Part shown: one piece after another, positions 14,882 through 56,745 of the stretch
How positions within the stretch are numbered: position 1 is the first letter of the stretch
How the letters are laid out: every line of letters starts with the position of its first letter
Source: Candidatus Iainarchaeum sp.
GTDB taxonomy: Archaea > Iainarchaeota > Iainarchaeia > Iainarchaeales > VGJJ01
Length of the DNA stretch: 56,949 nucleotides
Assembly (NCBI GenBank): GCA_043803765.1
Contig: JAZDJQ010000016.1
Coordinates: 1 to 56,949, forward strand
Direction of reading: 5' to 3'
The notes under the pieces: generated by a model
Seen by the model: only the letters and a program-made list of their open reading frames with translations
Told to the model about the DNA's origin: nothing
Database searches by the model: none
Program-made: the position numbers and the translations under genes

Positions 14882-14930
14882 TACATCAAACCGTTTTAAT
14901 TTCTAAACTTTTTTCGAACGGTTTGCTATC
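14882..14930. repeat. Solo copy of 49-bp palindromic dispersed element (unit B)
   Basis: Reverse complement matches units at 28390-28438 and 50578-50626. Confidence 0.85.
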
Positions 14931-14931
14931 A

Positions 14932-15690
14932 TTATTTTTTCTTACGTTTCTTTAGCTTACGCGCCGGTGCATTACTATTTGATAGCTGGCTTTTTCGAGT
15001 GTTTCCTAATACTCCGCTTGAACGCACTGTTTCACTCATCACAATGTACAATGTCATCCACCACAAATAGGACGCAATGCCAAGGAAGACAACCGACAAT
15101 GCATTAAACTCGGGAAGAGAAAGAAGCGTGACAATTCCCACAAGAACAATTCCATACCCTATCATCAGAATCCAAGAAATCCAATACTTGGCTGTTCCCA
15201 CTACGCGCAAAATCTTTTCAAATGAAAACGCACTGCTCACTCTCTTGTCATGCGCATACAATTGTACTCCTACCGGCAACATAATTGCCGCGATAATGAA
15301 CAAAAATAGCGCGATCGACCCAATAATGGCTCCTCCAATAGCAAGAAACATTACTCCTTGCACGGACGCTCCAATATTGAGCGGAATATTACGAATGATT
15401 TCCATAATCAAAGGAAGAGATGCCGCCGCCCCGAACAATAATACAAGAAGCGCGGGCAAAAAGAACAAAATAGCAATAACAAAAACAATCAATCCCGAAA
15501 GAAAAGAATCAACAAAGTCATCAAACATGGGCATGCGGTCATTCTGATGAAATGTCCTCCGGGAGAGTTCAATCCCTAACCCGTGCAACAAAGGCCTTGT
15601 TGGAGGAAAAATGGCAAACAACACCCCTAGCACAATCGTCACGGGATCCGCCCGCAAGGGCCGCTTGACCGCCTCAACAAAATCAACCAT
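14932..15690 (-). CDS. DUF4013-like multi-pass membrane protein
   Basis: MVDFVEAVKRP, MPMFDDF, SAFSFEKILR, several TM helices; GGAGG SD. Confidence 0.7.
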   Translation of the reverse strand: MVDFVEAVKRPLRADPVTIVLGVLFAIFPPTRPLLHGLGIELSRRTFHQNDRMPMFDDFVDSFLSGLIVFVIAILFFLPALLVLLFGAAASLPLIMEIIRNIPLNIGASVQGVMFLAIGGAIIGSIALFLFIIAAIMLPVGVQLYAHDKRVSSAFSFEKILRVVGTAKYWISWILMIGYGIVLVGIVTLLSLPEFNALSVVFLGIASYLWWMTLYIVMSETVRSSGVLGNTRKSQLSNSNAPARKLKKRKKK

Positions 15691-15821
15691 TTCTGATTCC
15701 TCCTTCCAGTATGAAGTAACTAATCCCAGCAACGGGTTGCCGTTTATAAACCACTTCCTTTTTCACTCTACGTGAAATACCCCTCTTCTATTAAATGGAG
15801 AATTAAACACAAGGAGTAAGC

Positions 15822-20873: not shown

Positions 20874-22229
20874 CTATTTTGTTTCGAGTATTTCTTTGAG
20901 TTTTCGGTCAAATTGGGCGCTTTTATAGTAAATGAACTTTTTCCCTGTTAATTTCTTTTCCAAAAACCCTTTTTCGGTCAAATGGTCCAAATCTGTTCGC
21001 GCGGTTTGGTAAACAACGTTGTGTGTGTTTTGTATTTCTTGAATCGTGAATATTTTGTCGGGGTGCTTGATAATTTCCTTGAGCAGGAGCGACTGTCGAA
21101 GGTTGATGTTAGGTACTTTCTGGATGATTCTAGTTGCTTCTCGGATTTCCTTTTGCTTTTGATTGATATATGATTTCAGCTCGATCATGGCGCGATGAGT
21201 GGAGTCCAAGTTGAAGTTTAGAAAATAGTTAAGATCCATCTCGTCTGTTTCCGTGTAAAGATATGCTTTTTGATATTGGGAAGGAGCCTGTTTGAGTATT
21301 CTAGAAATGGATGTGAACTGGAATAACCAATAATCGTTTTTGAGGCAATACCAATAGAATAGTGCGCGCGCCGTTCGTCCATTCCCATCTACGAAAGGGT
21401 GGACGTATCCAATGAGAAAATGCAAAATAATTGCTTTAATTAATGGGTGGATATACGGGTCGTCTTTTCGATTGGCGAACGTGCAAATGTCTTGAACAGC
21501 CTTTGGGACAATCGCGGCTAATGGTGGCGTGTACATTACTTCTTGGGTTGCTTGATCTAATACCACAATGTCGTCTGTTATTCGGAATGCTCCCTCAAAC
21601 TCTTTTCCTTCAAGTGTATCATTTGTAACCATTTTGTGAATTTTTTGGATAAATTCAGGGGTAAGAAGATGATTTTTGTCTTTTACACTATCTACGATGA
21701 ACTTGATAGAGTGATAATTATTGGTAATCATTTTTTCAGACTCATTTCGCGGCTTTCTTCCCGTTCGGAGCATTTCCTTGGCGACTTTTCGTGTAGTTGC
21801 AGCTCCTTCAAGTTGGCTTGAAGCAATTGCCTCTTCCATGAGTGAGTTAATGAGGTAGTAATCTTTGTTTTCCCCTTGAAGCCCAGTTAGTGAAGTATTT
21901 GACTCAACAGTCATGCTGGCATGGGTATCAATCTCGTGCAGTCGTTCAATGATTTGTCCTGTTAGCTGGTATTTGAGGCGTGTGCGGGCTAGGAATGGTA
22001 ATAAAATTTCTTGGTAGTTGGTATTTCGGAACAGTTTGATGATCGCCCAAACTATTTCATGTTTGAACCCTTTCGGCAGTTCCATATGAAATAGCTGATC
22101 CCAATGGAAATACTCATCATTCGCCTGCTTGAGCAAGGCTTGGGCCTCTGGGCTGCGGGTTGTTTCGAGTACCTGAGAATTTTTTCCCAAGACTTCTCTC
22201 CAATTCGGGGGTTTTAGGGGGGTTTTCAT
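20874..22229 (-). CDS. Fic family protein with C-terminal winged HTH
   Basis: HPFVDGNGRTAR; SSQLEG; YQTARTDLDHL. Confidence 0.92.
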   Translation of the reverse strand: MKTPLKPPNWREVLGKNSQVLETTRSPEAQALLKQANDEYFHWDQLFHMELPKGFKHEIVWAIIKLFRNTNYQEILLPFLARTRLKYQLTGQIIERLHEIDTHASMTVESNTSLTGLQGENKDYYLINSLMEEAIASSQLEGAATTRKVAKEMLRTGRKPRNESEKMITNNYHSIKFIVDSVKDKNHLLTPEFIQKIHKMVTNDTLEGKEFEGAFRITDDIVVLDQATQEVMYTPPLAAIVPKAVQDICTFANRKDDPYIHPLIKAIILHFLIGYVHPFVDGNGRTARALFYWYCLKNDYWLFQFTSISRILKQAPSQYQKAYLYTETDEMDLNYFLNFNLDSTHRAMIELKSYINQKQKEIREATRIIQKVPNINLRQSLLLKEIIKHPDKIFTIQEIQNTHNVVYQTARTDLDHLTEKGFLEKKLTGKKFIYYKSAQFDRKLKEILETK

Positions 22230-22234
22230 ATAAG

Positions 22235-22340
22235 AACCTACTAATTTAGTAGGAATTAGTAGATATTAGTAGTGGTCCAAACTATTTAAAGCTATACGCA
22301 AAACCTACTAATTTAGTAGGAATTAGTAGATATTAGTAGT
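22235..22340. repeat. Two perfect 39-bp direct repeats, each with an internal palindrome, flanking the fic TATA box
   Basis: AACCTACTAATTTAGTAGGAATTAGTAGATATTAGTAGT at 22235-22273 and 22302-22340; 28-nt spacer contains TATTTAAA. Confidence 0.9.
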
Positions 22341-22531
22341 TGGGCAAAATGAGGTGGAAATACCTTCTGGTGGAGGCGCTTATACTATTCTAGCAAACTG
22401 CCAATCAATTTTTCCATACAGGATTCCATTAGTTGGTTAATCGAATTAGTAATAGGATCTAGATTATGGCGGACCATCCAATGTAGAGGCGAGATGCTCA
22501 TTTATATCCTTTTTCAAGACCCATTCTGCGT

Positions 22532-25833: not shown

Positions 25834-27545
25834 ATGCATACTATTACGCATGATATTCTCATTATTGGAGGAGGTTTAGCCGGACAACGCGCAGCCATTG
25901 AAGCAAGAAACATGGGAATGAACGTGGGAATCGTTTCAAAAGTCCACCCGGTACGCAGTCCCAGTGTGGCAGCTACTGGAGGAATCAATGCCGCACTAGG
26001 AGAGAAAGATAATTGGAAAGACCACTTTCACGACACGGTATACGGAAGTGACTTCCTAGGAGATCAGGATGCGATACGCATTCTATGCAAGGATGCTCCT
26101 ACCCGAGTAAAAGAACTCGAATCATGGGGCGTCGTTTTTTCCCACACAAAAAAGGAACGATTGCCCAGCGATTATCCGGGGGACAAAAAATTTCCCGCAC
26201 CTGCTATGCAGTAGAAGGAACAGGACACATGCTTTTGCATACGCTGTATGACCAGCTCATGAAAACAAAGACTACTATTTATCCAGAACATTACTGCCTC
26301 TCTCTCCTACTTGATACGGAAGGATGCCACGGTGCAGTCCTATGGGACATTGTGCACGGAAAAATAATCACCGCACGAGCAAAAGCAACATTGCTCGCAA
26401 CAGGAGGATGCGGAAAGATATTCGCTACTACGAGTAATGCACGCACTAGTACTGGAGATGGACTTGCCCTCGCCTATCATGCGGGGATTCCTCTGGAAGA
26501 CATGGAAATGATCCAATTCCACCCCACTGGAATGTATGGAAAAGGATTCATTGTGAGTGAAGCATCACGAGGAGAAGGAGCATTTTTGCTCAATGCCAAC
26601 GGGGAACGATTTATGAAAAAATACGCTCCACAGAAAATGGAACTTGCCCCTTTTGACGTAGCAGCGCGAGGGATTGCAATGGAAATACTCCAAGGGAAAG
26701 GAGCAGGCTCCAAAAAAGACCACGTGTTTATTGACATGCGACCATTAGGAAAAGAAAAAATAACGGAACGCGTTCCAGAAATACACCAAACCGTGCGCGA
26801 ACAATTAGGGATAGACTGTACAAAAGACCTTATTCCTATTACCCCAACCGCTCATTACAGTATGGGGGGCATCCCCACCGATACCCAAACACGCGTAACC
26901 ATGAATGAACATGCTTCTCCAGTAAAAGGACTATACGCCGCAGGAGAAGTGGCCTGCCTATCGGTGCATGGTGCAAATCGCCTGGGAGGAAATTCCCTGC
27001 TAGAAACCCAAGTATTCGGCCGCATCGCAGGAATCGAAATGAGCGAATACGCCCGACAAAAAAAGACACAAACAAAAATAGACGAAACACGATTCATCGA
27101 ACAAGCCATGAAACGAATTGAAATGCTTCTCCAAAACAGCAAAGGAAGCAAATCCAATGCCATTCAAGAAAAACTACAAGAAACCATGATGAAAGACTGC
27201 GGAATATTCCGAAACAAGGAAGGGTTGCAGCGAGGGATACGCATACGTTCCCAATTAGCAAAAGATGCCGCAACGATCCATGTTGAAGACAAAGGAATGG
27301 AATTCAACACCGACTTGATTAATGCTATCGAAACACAAAACATGGTGACTTTCTCCCAAGCTATCCTGGAAAGCGCACTCGCACGAAGAGAAAGCAGAGG
27401 AAGCCACTACCGAACCGATTATCCCACACGAAACGATGAAGGGTGGATGAAACATATCCTTTGCGTGCAAAAAGGAGAAAAACCAATGATTTCATACAAA
27501 AAGGTGGTGATAGCAGGATATGCCCCCGAAAAACGCCACTACTAG
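25834..27545 (+). CDS. sdhA: SdhA/FrdA-like flavoprotein split by a -1 frameshift at 26148-26154 (recoding, pseudogene or assembly error)
   Basis: ORF1 has GGGLAG and GGINAA; ORF2 has QFHPT, RGEG, HYSMGG, HGANRLGGNSL, ESRGSHYR; frames join at ACA AAA AAG. Confidence 0.8.
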
Positions 27546-28341
27546 AAGCAAAAAAAACAAGCAAAAGAAAAAGAATGCCCTTTCACAAGAAGAAAGAAAC
27601 ACTCCTCATTCTCAAAAAAAAGTTGTCTTACCCGTTTCCCCATTACATGTAAGAATTTATCGATTCAATCCCCACCTCGATTTCTCCCCACGAACACACG
27701 AATACAAACTAGTAGAAAAAGAAGGAGAAAGCATACTCGATTTACTTACACGCATTAAACACACGCAAGACGGAAGCCTAACCTACCGAGGAAACTGCGG
27801 AAATGGAAAATGCGGAGCATGCGGAATAAAAGTAAATGGAAAAGAAGTATTAGGATGCCTAACCAAAGTGAAAGATGTCATCGATACACACAACGGACTG
27901 CGCATCGACCCACTGCATGAAAAAGTATTGAAAGACTTGGCAGTGGATGAAACCAGTTTTTTCAATGAATTAATGAGTGTTAAACCCTGGATGGTACTCC
28001 GGCCGAATGATGCTAAACGAAAAAATAGAATAGGGAAAAAAGAAGTGGACGCTTTGGACAAAACAGCATTCTGCAACTTGTGCGGAATATGCACGGCAGC
28101 TACCGGAACATCGTTCAATGGAAAACTAGGCCCCGCATCCATAGTGAAAGCGTATCGCTACATTCACGATTCTCGAGATGGAGATGTTGAAAGAATCAAC
28201 CAATTAACAGAAGCATTTCCCGTATCGTATTCTATTAGTCTAGCGGACACGTGCCCGCGCGATATCCATCCTGGAAAAAAAACCCAATTACTGGAAAAAG
28301 AAACAAAACGCATGATGGAAAGAAAGAAACTTTCACCGTAA
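27520..28341 (+). CDS. sdhB: SdhB/FrdB-like Fe-S subunit, degenerate
   Basis: IYRFNP, CGNGKCGAC 2Fe-2S motif, LKDLAVD, CNLCGIC; later cluster Cys residues missing. Confidence 0.8.
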   Translation: MPPKNATTRSKKNKQKKKNALSQEERNTPHSQKKVVLPVSPLHVRIYRFNPHLDFSPRTHEYKLVEKEGESILDLLTRIKHTQDGSLTYRGNCGNGKCGACGIKVNGKEVLGCLTKVKDVIDTHNGLRIDPLHEKVLKDLAVDETSFFNELMSVKPWMVLRPNDAKRKNRIGKKEVDALDKTAFCNLCGICTAATGTSFNGKLGPASIVKAYRYIHDSRDGDVERINQLTEAFPVSYSISLADTCPRDIHPGKKTQLLEKETKRMMERKKLSP

Positions 28342-28343
28342 AA

Positions 28344-28438
28344 TATAGCAAAAAGCACAAGTATTTGAACAGTTAACTGGCTTTTTGCATATAACAAACC
28401 GTCCGAAAAAAGTTCAAAAATCAAAACGGTTTGCTATA
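28344..28438. repeat. Inverted doublet (A+B) of TATAG-ended palindromic element, MITE/BIME-like
   Basis: About 90% identical by hand alignment to 50531-50626. Confidence 0.88.
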
Positions 28439-46206: not shown

Positions 46207-48957
46207 ATGGGTCGAAAAGAAGACATGGCAAATGCCGCACAAAAACTAATGTCCAACCAACAAGATGTTCGAAATATTGGAATCGTAGCCCACATCGATC
46301 ACGGAAAATGCGTGGGCCCGGATACCCGCTTGTTGTTCGCGGATGGAAACGTTGAAACTGCTCAAACTATTTTTGAAACCCTTTCCAAAAAAGGAAAAAT
46401 TGTTCGCGAAAACCAAAACGAAACCGTCTATGAACTACCTGATGAAACAACTCCTGTTTTCTCTTTAAACAAAAACACGGGACGCATCGAGCGAAAACCC
46501 ATCTCACATGTTTGGAAATTGAAAGGAGGAAAAACGTTCAAGGTGACGCTTCGAAATGGGGCGACGGTTGAAACAACTCCCGAACACCCTTACCTTATTT
46601 TCAATGGAAATGATTTTATTGAAAAGGAAGCGCGAGCATTAAAATTAGGCGAAAAAATATTGGGAATCGACAATTGGCTTGAGCAATCAACGAGCCAAAA
46701 AGAAGAAAAAAACACAAATTCCAAAATTCTATTAATGGTTAAAAATGAATTGAGGGTAACCGAAAGCGAAATAGTCGATATTCAGGAAAGCCATCAGGAC
46801 ATTGTGTATGATTTTACTATTCCCGAAAACCACAATTTTGTCGCAGAAGGTGTGTTTATCCGTAATACTACAATGAGTGATAATCTCATCGCAGCAGCAG
46901 GGTTGATCAACAAGGAACTGGCAGGAAAACAACAATTCATGGATTTTGAAGACCAAGAACAGGACCGCGGAATTACAATTAACGCAGCCAATATTTCACT
47001 CGTTCCCTTGGTGAATGGAAAGCATTACTTACTCAATCTAATTGATACGCCCGGACATGTTGATTTTGGAGGAGAAGTTATTCGTGCCATGCGAGCCGTA
47101 GACGGTGTTGTATTGGTCGTGGATGCCGTAGAAGGAGTCATGCCTCAAACCGAAACAGTTATTCGTCAAGCATTGCGCGAGAATGTCAAACCCACTCTTT
47201 TCATCAACAAAGTGGACCGACTCATTAACGAGTTGCAGGTGGATGAAGCGGAAATGCAACGACGTTTCGTAAAAACAATAACCCAAGTAAATCAGCTCAT
47301 CCAAAAAAATGCCCCCGAAGGAAAAGAGGAATTATGGCAAGTCAATCCAGCAATAGGAAGCGTAGCATTCGGAAGCGCGTATCACCACTGGGCGGTTTCA
47401 ACCAAAAGCATGGCACGCACCGGAATCAATTTCAAAAAAGTATATGAGTGGATGAAAAACGACCAACAAAAAGAACTATCCAACAAATCCCCATTGGAAG
47501 ATACCATCTTTGAGATGATCGTGGAACATCTCCCCAATCCAATTGAAGCACAAAAATACCGCACCCCTGTTATTTGGGCAGGAGACCTAGAAAGCGAAGT
47601 AGGAAAAAGCATGCTCACATGCAATCCGCATGGAGAGGTTGCCATGATGGTAACCGATGTTTCAGTGGACCCACACGCAGGGGATATTGCAACAGGACGA
47701 GTGTACTCTGGAACAATAAAAAAAGGAGTAAAAGTCAAACTCATCGGATTGCAAAAAGAAGCACTCGTTAACCGTGTAGGAGTATACATGGGACAGGACT
47801 TTGTAGAAGTCGAATCAATTCCCGCAGGATGTATCGGAGCAATAGTAGGATTACGCGAAGCATACGCCGGACAAACCGTAGCACAGAATGATATTCACGA
47901 ATTTGAAAGTTTTAAGACAAACGTTGAACCCGTTATCACGATTTCAATTGAAGCAAAACAAACAAAGGATTTGCCAAAATTGATTGAAGTGATACGACAA
48001 CTTACAAAGGAAGACCCTAACCTGCGCGCAAGCATCAATCAAACAACAGGAGAACACTTGCTTTCAGGAATGGGGGAACTACATCTTGAAATCAACCAGT
48101 ATCGTATCGAGAAAACACACGGCGTGCCTATCACGGTTTCCCAACCCATTGTCGTATATCACGAAACGATTCAAATGCCTTCCCCCGAATTAGAAGGAAA
48201 ATCCCCAAACAAACACAACAAACTACTCATGAAAGTAGAACCCATTCCCAAAGCCATTTTGGAAAAACTCATGTACAATAAAGTACAAGGAAAAGTAAAA
48301 ATCAAAGACAAAGAATGGGTGGACAAGTTTGTGAACGCAGGAATTGACAACGATGAGGCAAAAAAGATTTGGTGTATTGAGAACTATAATTTGCTCGTGG
48401 ATGGAACAAAAGGAATACAAGCATTACACGAAATTCGTGAATTGGTAATCCAAGGATTCCAAGAAACAATGAAAGAAGGACCATTAGGAAAAGAAGAAGT
48501 GCACGGAATCAAAGTCACATTGACGGATGCCAAGTTGCACGAAGACGCGATCCACCGCGGTCCCTCGCAAATTATTCCCGTCGTATCACGCACCATTTAT
48601 GCCTGTATGCTATCCGCCAAGGCCGTTTTCCAAGAACCAAAACAATTACTCTCCATCAACGTTCCTGAAGAATACATGGGAGCCGTAACAAAAGAATTGC
48701 AGCAACGCCGCGTACAAATAACCGAAATCAAAAACGAAGGAGACCAAGTCATTATTATCGGCCTTGCGCCTGTGAAAGAATTAATCGGATTCTCCCAAGC
48801 CATTCGGGGAGCGGCCCAAGGGCGCGTGATTTGGACAGCCGAATACCACGGATACGAGATACTTCCCACGGAATTACAGAAGAAAACAATCGAAGAAGTA
48901 CGCAAAAGAAAAGGAATGGACCCCGAAGTCAAACACTACAGCTTCTTCTTGGAGTAA
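46207..48957 (+). CDS. fusA: Elongation factor EF-2, intein-containing
   Basis: AHIDHGK/TT after splicing, RGITI, DTPGHVDF, NKVD; diphthamide loop LHEDAIHRG. Confidence 0.97.
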   Translation: MGRKEDMANAAQKLMSNQQDVRNIGIVAHIDHGKCVGPDTRLLFADGNVETAQTIFETLSKKGKIVRENQNETVYELPDETTPVFSLNKNTGRIERKPISHVWKLKGGKTFKVTLRNGATVETTPEHPYLIFNGNDFIEKEARALKLGEKILGIDNWLEQSTSQKEEKNTNSKILLMVKNELRVTESEIVDIQESHQDIVYDFTIPENHNFVAEGVFIRNTTMSDNLIAAAGLINKELAGKQQFMDFEDQEQDRGITINAANISLVPLVNGKHYLLNLIDTPGHVDFGGEVIRAMRAVDGVVLVVDAVEGVMPQTETVIRQALRENVKPTLFINKVDRLINELQVDEAEMQRRFVKTITQVNQLIQKNAPEGKEELWQVNPAIGSVAFGSAYHHWAVSTKSMARTGINFKKVYEWMKNDQQKELSNKSPLEDTIFEMIVEHLPNPIEAQKYRTPVIWAGDLESEVGKSMLTCNPHGEVAMMVTDVSVDPHAGDIATGRVYSGTIKKGVKVKLIGLQKEALVNRVGVYMGQDFVEVESIPAGCIGAIVGLREAYAGQTVAQNDIHEFESFKTNVEPVITISIEAKQTKDLPKLIEVIRQLTKEDPNLRASINQTTGEHLLSGMGELHLEINQYRIEKTHGVPITVSQPIVVYHETIQMPSPELEGKSPNKHNKLLMKVEPIPKAILEKLMYNKVQGKVKIKDKEWVDKFVNAGIDNDEAKKIWCIENYNLLVDGTKGIQALHEIRELVIQGFQETMKEGPLGKEEVHGIKVTLTDAKLHEDAIHRGPSQIIPVVSRTIYACMLSAKAVFQEPKQLLSINVPEEYMGAVTKELQQRRVQITEIKNEGDQVIIIGLAPVKELIGFSQAIRGAAQGRVIWTAEYHGYEILPTELQKKTIEEVRKRKGMDPEVKHYSFFLE
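46309..46866 (+). mobile_element. Mini-intein (186 aa, no endonuclease) in the EF-2 P-loop
   Basis: Starts CVGPDT; block B TTPEHPY; ends VYDFTIPENHNFVAEGVFIRN before Thr+1. Confidence 0.93.
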
Positions 48958-49008: not shown

Positions 49009-49878
49009 ATGGATATCTCATTTGGAGTATTGGTGGCGTTTCTCGCCATGGTGTGCTGGGGAATAGGCGACTTTCTTATTCAGCGCTGCGTGCGCAAGAT
49101 TGGAGTCGTAGAAACACTCACAACGATTGGAGTGATTGGGGGAATAGGACTCCTTCCATTCGTGTGGAATGATCTCCAACAATTATTTCTCCCAGAAAAC
49201 AGCACTCTCCTAGTGGGACTTGGTATTGTCGCGTTCATCGCATCCATTCTGAATTTCTACGCTTACAAAGTAGGCAAGCTGAGCGTCGTAGAATTCATCC
49301 TCGAGTTCGAGCTGCCCGTGACAGTCGTTTTGGGATTGTTACTTTTCCAGGAAGTGCTTGGAGTCGAACAGATTATTCTAATGAGCGTAGTTTTTCTTGG
49401 TATTTTGCTTGTGGCCACGGGAACATTATCATTCAAGAAAGAGCACTGGGCCGAGAAGGGAGTATTGGTTGCACTCATGGCCGCGTTGTTGATGGGAATA
49501 GTGAATTTCCTCACTGCTTCTGCGGCTAAGAGCATCACTCCCCTGATTGCAATCTGGGGTCCCTGGATGATCATCACGATTATCTCCATTTTGATCATGT
49601 GGAAAGAAGGAAAGTTCAACGTGTTTTGGAAGAACGTCCAAAAATATCCTCAATTGATTGCCATAACCGGATTCGTGGACACGCTCGCATGGATCTCGTT
49701 TGCAGTCGCAACGTTCTATCAATCCCTGTCATTGAGCATCGCCATTACTGAGAGTTATCCCGCCGTGGCGCTTCTTTTAGGAATCCATTTCAACCACGAA
49801 CACATGAAAGGACACCAACTCCTCGGGGCATTGTTAGCGTTGAGCGGAAGTGTTGCACTGGGATTTTGGGTTCAATGA
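49009..49878 (+). CDS. DMT/EamA family transporter
   Basis: About 10 TM helices in two EamA-like halves. Confidence 0.85.
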   Translation: MDISFGVLVAFLAMVCWGIGDFLIQRCVRKIGVVETLTTIGVIGGIGLLPFVWNDLQQLFLPENSTLLVGLGIVAFIASILNFYAYKVGKLSVVEFILEFELPVTVVLGLLLFQEVLGVEQIILMSVVFLGILLVATGTLSFKKEHWAEKGVLVALMAALLMGIVNFLTASAAKSITPLIAIWGPWMIITIISILIMWKEGKFNVFWKNVQKYPQLIAITGFVDTLAWISFAVATFYQSLSLSIAITESYPAVALLLGIHFNHEHMKGHQLLGALLALSGSVALGFWVQ

Positions 49879-50249
49879 TGAAGTTTTACTTCATGCATTT
49901 TTTCGAAATCGGATCGGTTCTGTGTTACTAATATCGAATTCCACTGCATGGCGGTAGCCCCAATAAAGATATTCCTCATTTCTACTGGATTTCCTTTTCG
50001 TTTCAATTCATTAAATATCCATGCCGCAATGCGTGCGGTTTCTTGGTCGAATGCCACTACTGGTATTTTTTGCAAAAATCGCTCAACGGGCTCCCTATTA
50101 TCCCGTCGTTGCTGCAATTCAAATGCAGTAATTGCACTTACAAACAGATTTTTTTGATTCTTTTCCAAAAGAAGGCTGATTGCGGACTGATTACGACCTT
50201 TCAAAAAATCAATAATGGAACTGGTGTCTAGGCATATCTTTTGTTCCAT
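49872..50249 (-). CDS. vapC: VapC PIN-domain toxin
   Basis: CLDTSSIID, SAITAFEL, IGATA, LVTQNRSDF; overlaps upstream antitoxin. Confidence 0.88.
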   Translation of the reverse strand: MEQKICLDTSSIIDFLKGRNQSAISLLLEKNQKNLFVSAITAFELQQRRDNREPVERFLQKIPVVAFDQETARIAAWIFNELKRKGNPVEMRNIFIGATAMQWNSILVTQNRSDFEKMHEVKLHH

Positions 50250-50464
50250 TTTTTCCAACCTTCTTTGATCCACTTTTCATCTTCTTTGTCTTGAGCGGAG
50301 GAAACCCATGTCCCTTCGAGCGCCATAATCTGGGCTTTTCGGTTTTCCCAATCATCTTTTGCAGACAATTCATCTAACAGTTTGGTGAAACTAATTCCTT
50401 TTGCGTCTTTCAAGCGCCTAAGTTTATCGTATGTTTCATCCGCAATCATAATGGTCTTCGGCAT
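50228..50464 (-). CDS. vapB: Archaeal VapB-type antitoxin
   Basis: MPKTIMIADETYDKLRRLK...SFTKLLDEL RHH-like pattern. Confidence 0.85.
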   Translation of the reverse strand: MPKTIMIADETYDKLRRLKDAKGISFTKLLDELSAKDDWENRKAQIMALEGTWVSSAQDKEDEKWIKEGWKKWNKRYA

Positions 50465-50530: not shown

Positions 50531-50626
50531 TATAGCAAAAAGCCTAAGTATTTGAACAATTTAACGGGCTTTTTGCGTATAGCAAACCGTCCGACAAAAG
50601 TTCAAAAATTAAAACGGTTTGCTATA
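50531..50626. repeat. Inverted doublet (A+B) of TATAG-ended palindromic element
   Basis: TATAGCAAAAAGC...GCTTTTTGCG-TATA-GCAAACCGT...ACGGTTTGCTATA. Confidence 0.88.
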
Positions 50627-50687
50627 TCTGATATATCCGGCGGTTTAGTCTCCCAAAGTATATATGTTGTACGTGGGATATTTGTTT

Positions 50688-51302
50688 ATGGAATTCGAAT
50701 ACTCCGAGGGAAAAATCGTTTTCAATCGAGAACTGACAAATCTGGATAAGCTCGTCCTGAAGTTTTGCGACATCTTGCATCGATTGAACATCAGGTATGT
50801 CATCATATCGGGGTATATCACTATTCTCTTCGGACGCGTGCGAATGACCGATGACGTTGACTTGTTTATTGAAGAATTGCCAATCGAAAGAGTGATTGAA
50901 TTATGGAATTTGCTTGAAAAGGAAGGTTTTGAAGGTGTGTGCACATTTACTCCAGAAGAAGCATTTGAAACATTGAATGATAAAACATCCATCCGATTTG
51001 CCCTCAAAGGAACATGGAAACCCAATTTCGAATTAAAATTTCCAGCCAGTCCCAGCTCCATTTATTCCCTCCGAAAGAAGGTATTGGTGATATTGAATGG
51101 GCGGGAATTATACACATCCGAGATCGAAATGCAAATTGCCTATAAACTGAGGATGACTGGGGATAAAGACCTAGAGGACGCCCTTCATCTCTATTCGGTT
51201 TTTAAGGAACAATTGGACTTATCATTGCTAGAATTCCACATGCAAGACCTTGGGGTTCCACGAGAAAGGGCTGAACAATTATGGAAAAGCGGAAAAAAAT
51301 AA
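50688..51302 (+). CDS. Nucleotidyltransferase-fold protein (DUF6036-like)
   Basis: ISGY...GRVRMTDDVDL; IAYKL...KDLEDA. Confidence 0.75.
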   Translation: MEFEYSEGKIVFNRELTNLDKLVLKFCDILHRLNIRYVIISGYITILFGRVRMTDDVDLFIEELPIERVIELWNLLEKEGFEGVCTFTPEEAFETLNDKTSIRFALKGTWKPNFELKFPASPSSIYSLRKKVLVILNGRELYTSEIEMQIAYKLRMTGDKDLEDALHLYSVFKEQLDLSLLEFHMQDLGVPRERAEQLWKSGKK

Positions 51303-55218: not shown

Positions 55219-56745
55219 ATGCGTTTGATGGTCCTATTAGGAACAGTATTATTGTTATTGGGGTTTCTTGCCCCTGTTGGGTTTGCACAGGGAGCCGACC
55301 CCATTACTATTCGTGCGGAACCCAGTGAACCCATTGTGGATTCCGAACCCGCACAAAGTATTGGAATAGATCGAGGAGAAGCCTCTACTGTTCATGAAGA
55401 TGATTCCCAAATAAACGAGCCCAATTCTTTACCCGCAGAGGAAGCAACTGTTGAATTAAGTGAGTCGGATTCGTCCGATTCCCAGATTCCCCCATCGAAT
55501 GATTCGTCTGTAATTGAAACAAAGCTCTTGCCCACCCTTGGTTCAGCAGGTGATTTGCCGACGACTTGTAGGGTTTCAATTAATCCTCAAACGGGCATTG
55601 TGAAAAAGATTTGTTCAATTAATGGTTCGTTTGATGAAGCACATGATGTTCCAACCAATGTAACGGGCCCCATTAGTGGTTCGTTTGATGAGGCACATGA
55701 TTTGCCTGTTGGTGTTAGCGTAACCGGCCCCATTGGGGGTCCATTTGATGAGGCACATGAAGTTCCCACTACTGCAACGAGTGTTGCAGGTCCATTTAGC
55801 GAAGCCAGCGAACAACCCGTGGTTCAGACGGAATCGCCTTCTACCATTGGCACGATTGAAGATGCCCCCATTTGCATGGTTTCAATTAATTTGCTAACGG
55901 GTGCCATGAATAAGATTTGTCCAATGGACGGTTCGTTTGATGAAGCACATGATGTTCCAACCAATGTAACGGGTCCTATTGATGGACCATTTGATGAGGC
56001 ACATGATTTGCCTGTTGGTGTTAGTGTAACCGGTCCTATTGGTGGTTCGTTTGATGAGGCACATGAGTCGCCTATTATTGGTTCAGCGGATTTGCCGACA
56101 GGCTGTAGGGTTTTAATCGATCCTCAAACGGGCATTGTGAGAAAGATTTGTCCAGTCGATGGTCCGTTTAATGAAGCCGACGAACAACCCGTGGTTGGGA
56201 CGGAATCGCCCTCTACCATTGGCACGATTGAAGATGTTCCGATATGCATGGTTTCAATTAATTTGTTAACCGGTGCCATGAATAAGATTTGTCCAATGGA
56301 CGGTTCGTTTGATGAAGCAAATGATGTTCCAACCAATGTAACGGGTCCTGTTGATGGCCAGTTTGCTGAAGCCACCGACCAGCCTATCAATACTGATAAT
56401 GGCAATGGAACGGACGGGGGAAGCACTGGCGGAAGCGGTTCTTCTTCTGGAGGCGGAGGGGGCGGATCAGGATTCCATTCATTACCTGCTCCTACACCGA
56501 ACGAGACTGAATTACCTGTGTTGCCTTCTCCGGATGCCGGTTCTACCGAATTGGGACCCGATCCTGCTGTTGTGGGACTCGCGGATGGACGTATGGGAGT
56601 AGAAACCCCCACTGGATCACCTGCTCTCGCATCTGATAATCCTATTATTGGATTACTCACAGGAGCCAATGCACCATTAATCGGAATTGGATTATTGGTC
56701 ATTCTGGGTATTGGTCTCTACATTCGCGGACGAAGCGTAGCATAG
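55219..56745 (+). CDS. Repeat-rich acidic cell-surface protein with signal peptide and C-terminal TM anchor
   Basis: MRLMVLLGTVLLLLGFLAPVGFA; ten G(S/P)FDEAH-type motifs; Gly/Ser linker; terminal TM. Confidence 0.85.
   Translation: MRLMVLLGTVLLLLGFLAPVGFAQGADPITIRAEPSEPIVDSEPAQSIGIDRGEASTVHEDDSQINEPNSLPAEEATVELSESDSSDSQIPPSNDSSVIETKLLPTLGSAGDLPTTCRVSINPQTGIVKKICSINGSFDEAHDVPTNVTGPISGSFDEAHDLPVGVSVTGPIGGPFDEAHEVPTTATSVAGPFSEASEQPVVQTESPSTIGTIEDAPICMVSINLLTGAMNKICPMDGSFDEAHDVPTNVTGPIDGPFDEAHDLPVGVSVTGPIGGSFDEAHESPIIGSADLPTGCRVLIDPQTGIVRKICPVDGPFNEADEQPVVGTESPSTIGTIEDVPICMVSINLLTGAMNKICPMDGSFDEANDVPTNVTGPVDGQFAEATDQPINTDNGNGTDGGSTGGSGSSSGGGGGGSGFHSLPAPTPNETELPVLPSPDAGSTELGPDPAVVGLADGRMGVETPTGSPALASDNPIIGLLTGANAPLIGIGLLVILGIGLYIRGRSVA
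55545..56380 (+). repeat. Intragenic mosaic repeats
   Basis: Near-identical DNA blocks, e.g. GGTTCGTTTGATGAAGCACATGATGTTCCAACCAATGTAACGGG recurring. Confidence 0.9.

Follow-up and report, generated by a model that had tools for sequence, protein, structure and literature searches.

A two-hairpin, probably mobile repeat family in the intergenic DNA of one order of DPANN-type archaea

A 96-nt doublet of two inverted hairpins, A and then B, was identified at positions 50531..50626 (plus strand) of a 56,949-nt contig of Candidatus Iainarchaeum sp. (GenBank assembly GCA_043803765.1, contig JAZDJQ010000016.1), which is referred to here as the window. This doublet probably belongs to a family of mobile repeats that are small, non-coding and non-autonomous; the family is widespread, yet patchy, in a single order of DPANN-type archaea with small genomes. 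We consider it likely that the members of the family are both mobile and selected for their fold. The conserved features are the hairpin feet (TATAGC/GCTATA), the complementary boxes in the two loops and the pairing of the stems; the letters of the stems are free to vary. The window is contig C16 of a genome of 1.02 Mb in 19 contigs (G000). No description of this family was found in literature searches on palindromic repeats and MITEs (miniature inverted-repeat transposable elements) of DPANN archaea and Woesearchaeota or on the REPIN/RAYT systems; the supplementary sequence catalogues of PMC11602168 lay outside these searches.

Structure of the doublet

The doublet is composed of two adjacent imperfect palindromes of 47 and 49 nt. 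Unit A (50531..50577, plus strand) has the foot TATAGC and contains a 10-bp stem (arms 50535-50544/50567-50576), a 22-nt loop and an unpaired base, G50577. Unit B (50578..50626, plus strand) contains a 13-bp stem (arms 50578-50590/50614-50626) and a 23-nt loop. The whole doublet scores 104.1 bits against a covariance model of the family. Loop A carries a TTTGAAC box at 50551-50557 and loop B carries its complement, GTTCAAA, at 50600-50606. Read on the reverse strand, unit B has the form TATAGCAAA, 11 bases, TTTGAAC, 13 bases, TTTGCTATA, which matches unit A in its layout and in the offset of the box. The original prediction that the two halves are homologous and inverted, with the box at an equal offset in both, can therefore be read directly from the letters. 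As loop B carries the complement of the box in loop A, the layout is the same on either DNA strand.

The outer arms of 9-13 nt (TATAGCAAA ... TTTGCTATA) form a true terminal inverted repeat. The inner stems are unlike between the two units, yet complementary within each of them (AAGCC/GGCTT in A and CCGT/ACGG in B). Both strands fold into two hairpins, as DNA or as RNA, with z-scores of -3.6 to -5.8 over ten folds of the window copies. At most 1 of 200 shuffled sequences folded as stably as the plus strand of a lone unit described below, and none of 200 did so for the other nine folds.

Selection on the fold

The two-hairpin fold is under selection. Compensatory changes in the stems had first been claimed from two units, and the claim is upheld by a larger set of copies gathered from related genomes and metagenome contigs. 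In a MAFFT alignment of 49 copies, 90.6% of the stem cells are paired and 11 of the 23 pairs have changed on both sides; none of 500 shuffles matches these values, and controls in which the pairing was slid reach 33-42%. When 72 distinct copies are compared, 91.8% of the stem cells are paired and 22 of the 29 pairs have changed on both sides, again with no match among 500 shuffles. This set contains 180 cells with a change on both sides versus 43.9 in the shuffles, and the slid controls are 29-43% paired. The shuffle control ignores the relatedness of the copies, and the conclusion is robust despite this relatedness, given the many independent stem types and the slid controls.

The model-fitted alignment shows what is held constant. 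Watson-Crick pairs occupy 1501 of its 1650 stem cells. More than 10 distinct A stems and about as many B stems are present, each self-complementary, under loops and TATAGC/GCTATA feet that are nearly constant. Subfamilies may thus have wholly unlike stems with the same loops and feet. The box keeps its fixed place in the loop, inverted between the units, as expected of the asymmetric internal motif that had been proposed, and it is conserved across the whole order. A covariance model of the larger copy set, suggested earlier as a check, recovers the covarying stems and the conserved position of the box. A single long hairpin, in which A would pair with B, was rejected because each stem remains self-complementary in subfamilies whose A and B stems are unrelated.

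Covariation is also seen between the loops. The 7-nt complementarity of loop A and loop B is 90% paired in the 72 copies, and two-sided changes affect four of its seven pairs in a few divergent copies. In some copies, three neighbouring positions of the loop box change together. These mirrored boxes fit either a loop-loop contact or one reader of the same box in both units.

Copies and distribution

About 16 copies were found on 9 of the 19 contigs of the window genome by BLAST, nhmmer and the covariance model. These comprise eight full doublets, four degenerate doublets and four single or partial units, and the covariance model alone finds 14 loci. The order of the units is always A and then B with the loop box inverted. 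No copy of this genome lies within a long open reading frame (ORF) as drawn by a crude ORF caller; a few overlap the start or end of a called ORF by at most 11 nt, and two are covered by ORF calls judged doubtful. At two copies, the called ORF of the upstream gene ends a few bases into the element. In the family generally, copies are almost exclusively intergenic and occur in either orientation.

The element also occurs in a complete genome of 1.24 Mb from another family of the order (G033), which carries it at about 60 places, a count based on 150 scored candidates out of 1351. Some of these copies are 93-98% alike. Their orientations appear, by eye, to be loosely grouped along the chromosome.

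A BLAST survey of the genus detected the element in 4 of 16 other genomes, three of them with 16, 6 and 2 matches and the fourth (G005) with a single short, partial one, as well as in the complete genome G033. The total for the genus is 4 of 17 genomes when the window genome is counted and the partial match is left out. With the covariance model, 36 of the 151 genomes searched in the order were identified as carriers, and these represent 21 of 65 genera. The number of carriers per family is very uneven (e.g., 6/6, 9/15, 6/16, 3/15 and 0/16). In a phylum-level sample, all 33 carriers belong to the same order, and none of the 11 genomes under five further family labels is a carrier, these labels being thinly sampled. 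No exact match to a gapped pattern, which covers only some of the subfamilies, was found in viral contigs. A 16-mer junction pattern searched over genome contigs was too unspecific and returned 120 loci, of which one is a true element and one a doubtful partial copy.

Evidence for mobility

Copies are gained or lost at orthologous sites. The spacer upstream of the vapB-like gene beside the window doublet contains the element in the window genome and none in two relatives (G004 and G006), in which the flanks of this spacer are conserved and the gene on its far side differs. Conversely, a third relative (G007) carries a copy 3 nt past a stop codon, and the window genome has the orthologous gene without it. 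The window genome also holds one copy of the subfamily that is dominant in G004. The assembly of G007 is fragmented, and several of its copies lie at contig ends or within about 100 nt of them, which is consistent with breakage of the assembly at the repeats.

Insertion of copies into other copies is also seen, and the resulting composites were multiplied in turn. One doublet of G033 is interrupted in its loop A by a block of four hairpins. This composite is present at three places with different flanks, and the block alone is found at two more. The insertion point lies in a run of A in loop A, and five uninterrupted relatives have no TA there. Further composites and tandem arrays sharing a terminal TATA occur.

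G033 contains additional hairpin modules without the loop box (L035:1504-1780, L036, L044 and L232:1021-1171). These include the two outer hairpins of the four-hairpin block and 'mini' A and B hairpins with deleted loops, which suggests that the set of related modules is wider than the one captured by the covariance model. Two short metagenome contigs (L233:1-316 and L213:1-692) match G033 at 99.9-100% identity as far as a certain position, beyond which they diverge; in L233 this position is exactly the edge of an element. Such divergence could reflect recombination at the repeats or assembly chimeras.

Among 41 copies, no direct repeats of 2-6 nt were found to flank the conserved ends, the counts being at or below those of a permuted control. 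The flanking preference is weak (31 of 41 copies have A at -3 and 21 have T at +3), and conservation otherwise stops at the feet of the hairpins.

Proposed mobilisation and the search for an enzyme

The loops and feet are constant and the stems need only to pair, which points to recognition of the element in single-stranded, folded form. The likeliest substrate would be DNA exposed during replication or transcription, and recognition of the duplex through protein-bound inverted repeats appears less likely. A structure-specific enzyme acting in trans may cut and rejoin the element without duplication of the target. By virtue of the two-fold layout, whichever strand is exposed would offer the same pair of hairpins. 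Single-strand HUH enzymes are known to cut and rejoin DNA without target duplication. The best candidate class would be the single-strand HUH/Y1 transposases of the IS200/IS605 kind, which co-occur with the element across genomes and against which there is also direct evidence. Inserted copies may additionally serve as transcription stops in both directions, as suggested by runs of five T on both strands; oligo-T is a termination signal in archaea.

Among the 151 genomes of the order, a match to Y1_Tnp is present in 22 of 36 carriers and in 21 of 115 non-carriers (Fisher p = 2.9e-6; Mantel-Haenszel p = 0.0013 when stratified by family). The control family DDE_Tnp_1 is present in 20 of 36 carriers versus 42 of 115 non-carriers (p = 0.053; stratified p = 0.59). 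Y1_Tnp is the only transposase family found to be associated with the element at the genome level. The original prediction had implied a cognate protein, with a nuclease or recombinase flanked by the units. This part did not stand: no such gene was found at the 25 Y1 loci or at any DDE locus examined, and co-occurrence of Y1_Tnp at the genome level is what was obtained in its place. No autonomous insertion sequence with the same ends was found at six DDE_3, six DDE_Tnp_1 and 25 Y1 loci, in a search that was not exhaustive. TnpB-type zinc ribbons and rve domains were not found in five carriers, apart from one weak TnpB-type fragment in one of them (G107).

Several observations weigh against mobilisation by a Y1 enzyme. 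Related genomes are not independent, so the p-values for Y1_Tnp overstate the association. No doublet and no hairpin with the box was found within 1 kb of any of the 25 Y1_Tnp loci, taken with 2 kb on either side where the contig allows; the presence of two doublets at 1.1 and 3 kb from Y1 loci can be explained by chance. No Y1 match was found in 14 of the 36 carriers. The complete genome G033, with its approximately 60 copies, contains no match to Y1_Tnp, DDE_3, TnpB-type or rve domains and only a weak DDE_Tnp_1 fragment. The Y1 element of the window genome is an ordinary GC-rich copy of the IS200 type, the end hairpins of which are short, GC-rich and unrelated to the doublets. It is located at the end of a contig (C4:162-748, L032) beside a tRNA gene, encodes a transposase of about 140 aa with IS200-type motifs and is 77-82% identical to two copies in G007.

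The evidence from genome comparison has its own limits. No base-exact empty site was obtained by comparing G007, G004 and G006 with the window genome or metagenome contigs with G033, and the comparisons show presence or absence of the element only. The compared genomes are about 70-85% identical and their intergenic DNA cannot be aligned. The ends of the element and the lack of duplication consequently rest on flank statistics, and a duplication of 2-4 nt may be hidden within the conserved TA/TATA ends. Transposition as such is deduced from comparisons of sequences rather than directly observed. The stem mismatches (19 G:T and 31 A:C) show no strand preference, so they favour neither folding strand and fit DNA as well as RNA. 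A mobile, fold-selected element family still appears to be the probable explanation, whereas a Y1 transposase is a tentative candidate for its mobiliser, and one that is on balance doubtful.

Alternative explanations

The repeats might instead be a host-function site present in many places, i.e., a bidirectional transcription stop, an insulator or a binding site of a host protein maintained by selection on the host. Such a role may hold alongside mobility. It would account for the T5 runs on each strand and for the conservation of the loop box throughout the order. In the window genome, seven copies begin within 15 nt of the stop codon of a co-oriented gene or overlap it by at most 5 nt, and in tandem-gene contexts six copies are co-oriented and none is opposed. 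In G033, about a dozen whole or partial doublets lie in about 45 kb (C1:1,170,000-1,215,000), several times the genome average, among genes for GINS, eIF2 alpha and beta, eRF1, TruD, L10e, the A and B subunits of Topo VI, a RIO kinase and MetRS. When 51 ORFs of this region were compared with Pfam, they were housekeeping or unassigned and no transposase was found.

The orientation bias, however, is not general. Over 39 doublets in five genomes, analysed with the same crude ORF caller, tandem contexts include 13 co-oriented and 7 opposed copies, and 11 further copies lie between divergent and 7 between convergent genes. An orientation bias relative to flanking genes, one of the points raised beforehand, was thus not found as a general property. 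A cassette combining a terminator with a promoter was rejected because the bias of the window genome fails to hold in the other four. In the window genome, the start codon that follows a copy lies anywhere between about 30 and 180 nt from the end of unit B. The 212-aa ORF that follows the window doublet (50664/50688-51302) comes with a TATA-like box of its own (50656-50666), located outside the element and about 24 nt before the ATG at 50688; the element is therefore not required as its promoter. A reading of TTGAAC/TTCAAA and the TATA ends as bacterial -35 and -10 boxes was rejected on the same ground, and also because the spacings vary and the host is archaeal (the archaeal model gives its small-subunit rRNA 1339 bits and the bacterial model 1045 bits). 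Furthermore, the same orthologous spacers occur with and without the element, and a presence in 4 of 17 genomes of the genus and 36 of 151 of the order argues against an essential conserved signal. A host-function site is an unlikely explanation of the family as a whole.

A second alternative is an ordinary cut-and-paste MITE. Its outer 9-13 nt (TATAGCAAA ... TTTGCTATA) would be terminal inverted repeats bound by a DDE enzyme of the IS630/Tc1-like kind, the TA in the TATA ends would be the duplicated target, and the inner arms would be a by-product of the fusion of two mini-MITEs head to head. Tc1-like elements have a ANNTANNT-like target consensus. The weak symmetric flanks (A at -3 and T at +3) would fit a palindromic ANNTANNT-like target if TA were duplicated, and the outer arms are indeed a true terminal inverted repeat. 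Bulk catalogues of MITEs exist for DPANN and Woesearchaea genomes, according to the available text of PMC11602168. Several findings speak against this explanation. DDE_3 (IS630-type) is present in just 4 of 151 genomes and 2 of the 36 carriers, and none of the six DDE_3 loci examined has these ends. Six DDE_Tnp_1 loci (IS4/IS5-type) in five carriers are not bounded by the units either, and this family shows no association with the element within families. Stems that vary with compensation under constant loops are the opposite of what is expected from protein-bound terminal repeats around a free interior. The nested block in G033 sits in an A run, at a place where the five uninterrupted relatives lack TA. 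A cut-and-paste MITE of this kind is quite unlikely.

A third alternative is a structured small RNA module, in which the loops of the two hairpins would meet in a 7-bp kissing interaction with a role at the RNA level, e.g., in transcript stability, in processing or as an antisense loop. The loops are exactly complementary over 7 nt and covary as described above, and the RNA folds of both strands are strongly stable (z of -3.9 to -5.8). Mirrored changes in the loops would, however, be equally expected from one protein that reads the box in both units. The stems show no excess of G:U over A:C (19 versus 31), the orientation is not biased overall relative to transcription, and no promoter is evident at a fixed distance. 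An Rfam scan of the window produced no family that reaches its threshold. The doublet has a weak full-length match to the two-hairpin family ES056 (RF02752; 26.4 bits, E about 0.01), which was rejected as an assignment since it is mostly structural and far under the gathering threshold of 43. An RNA gene would also leave the differences in presence and the nesting unexplained unless it were itself mobile. A small RNA module is very unlikely to be the explanation.

An integron attC site was rejected since the copies are dispersed among housekeeping genes on 9 of the 19 contigs with no cassette arrays, and since covariation supports two hairpins and not a single long one; no search for an integron integrase formed part of this comparison.

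Comparison with known repeat systems

The original prediction had likened the doublet to the repetitive extragenic palindromic (REP) pairs of BIMEs and REPINs. The likeness stands as an analogy. Both are short extragenic palindromes in many copies, the mobile unit is an inverted doublet, singles and clusters occur (here also as tandem and nested arrays), several families may share a genome and the distribution is patchy, as far as the REP systems are described in the available parts of PMC6006769, PMC3116915 and PMC3337134. According to the same sources, an HUH/Y1 enzyme probably acts on REP elements in the form of single-strand hairpins. The family described here differs from them in its foot: almost every one of the 72 aligned copies has TATAGC and none has GTAG or GTGG, so that the GT[AG]G foot is absent. 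Its large loops (22-23 nt) are the conserved part, and its two adjacent units share a TATA rather than forming one long hairpin. A REPtron is absent as well: no single-copy RAYT gene flanked by units was found among the 25 Y1 loci, and the Y1 transposase of the window genome has IS200-type motifs. The host here is archaeal, and a 2018 survey of complete genomes placed only the IS200-type subclass in Archaea and the REP-associated classes only in Bacteria (PMC6006769, available text). The element is not a member of a REP-RAYT family. It might be an archaeal counterpart of the REPIN-RAYT systems that is built differently, with constant loops and an order-wide range, is moved in trans by an IS200-type Y1 enzyme or by a structure-specific enzyme yet to be recognised, and persists where no transposase gene remains; we regard this more specific possibility as doubtful.

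The element fits a loose definition of a MITE. Like prokaryotic MITEs, it is small, non-coding, multi-copy and intergenic, has terminal inverted repeats, would need an outside enzyme and belongs to a family found mostly in close taxa. A Woesearchaea genome is listed among the archaeal genomes densest in MITEs, with 105 per Mb (PMC11602168, available text). Unlike typical MITEs, the element shows no detectable duplication outside its conserved ends and has no parent insertion sequence with the same ends at the loci examined. The interior loops are conserved here and the repeats vary. In addition, the family spans at least 21 genera, whereas 97.4% of the MITEs catalogued in the same source stay within a genus (PMC11602168).

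The ends of IS200/IS605 elements offer a further comparison. In IS608-type elements, the end hairpins are alike on the same strand and the DNA is cleaved a few bases beyond the hairpins, adjacent to a fixed target tetranucleotide. The element described here likewise has a hairpin at each end, both of them under selection, and no detected duplication. Its two hairpins are inverted relative to each other, however, and conservation ends at their feet, with the weak A at -3 (31 of 41 copies) as the only flanking preference. In sequence, the element has no relation to the end hairpins of the resident IS200-type copy. IS200/IS605 transposition acts on single-stranded DNA without target duplication, as described in the available part of PMC6006769. 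The link between TnpA and the element is statistical, and G033 contradicts it.

Pneumococcal BOX elements are modular hairpin repeats and thus resemble this family in their construction. The orphan repeats of bacteria, such as the enterobacterial RU/ERIC-type repeats, are likewise intergenic, combine hairpin modules in varying ways and have no known mobilising enzyme in the portions of PMC2759123 and PMC3184786 available. Their sequences are unrelated to the present element and their hosts belong to another domain; a strict two-fold layout with complementary loops distinguishes the archaeal element from all of these.

Other copies in the window and neighbouring genes

Two more copies are present in the window. 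A second doublet (28344..28438, plus strand) is about 91% identical to the first and scores 102.4 bits with the covariance model. It begins 2 nt past the stop codon of a gene with a Fer2_3 domain (27520-28341) and ends 53 nt ahead of a DUF2203 gene. Unit A was expected to contain a single unpaired base in both doublets, and this is the case (G50577 and A28389), although the base becomes visible only when stem A is extended by the TATA that unit B also uses. The word TATAGCAAA occurs five times in the window versus 0.47 expected, a count that none of 100 shuffles reaches, and all five occurrences fall within the two doublets. The third copy is a lone, somewhat degenerate B-like unit (14882..14929, minus strand; 29.3 bits), which still folds, has a decayed loop box and shows 85-88% complementarity with both B units. 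It is situated between convergent genes, 3 nt after the end of a DUF4013 gene (14932-15732, minus strand).

Two other structures were noted in the window. A separate hairpin at 22052-22094 has a 9-bp stem and TTTGAAC in its loop, probably by chance. A 47-nt unit occurs twice in 22235-22348, in copies that are 94% alike and 67 nt apart, each with a short palindrome of TAGTAG-like words.

The window doublet is flanked by a divergent vapB-like gene (50228-50464, minus strand) and by the 212-aa ORF discussed above, which has no Pfam match. The VapB-type antitoxin gene is overlapped by a PIN-domain gene (49872-50273, minus strand), so that a toxin-antitoxin pair directly adjoins the doublet. Further upstream are genes encoding an EamA transporter and an intein-containing EF-2. 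The EF-2 gene (46207-48957, plus strand) encodes an Intein_splicing domain at residues 71-220, within the GTP-binding domain. Near the end of the window (55547-56438), direct repeats of 94-212 nt with 61-90% identity and spacings of 141-372 nt resemble a repeated coding module.

Significance

The genomes of DPANN archaea are among the smallest and densest of any cells, yet about 60 copies of this element lie in a complete 1.24-Mb genome, between core housekeeping genes and with no recognisable transposase for the element. The repeat could mark both lineage and recent mobility, and masking it is advisable before any intergenic motif of these genomes is interpreted as a promoter. Its dozens of stem variants under unchanged loops constitute a clean natural experiment in selection on a fold. 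The two hairpins of 47-49 nt are also a defined and testable substrate with which to find the enzyme or host factor that reads them. To our knowledge, descriptions of REP-like systems together with their enzyme come to date from Bacteria only. If the link to Y1 is true, REP-like systems of domesticated or hitch-hiking hairpins would not be confined to that domain. The family establishes no new principle. As a system, it is well defined and can be tested, and its lineage has been little studied.

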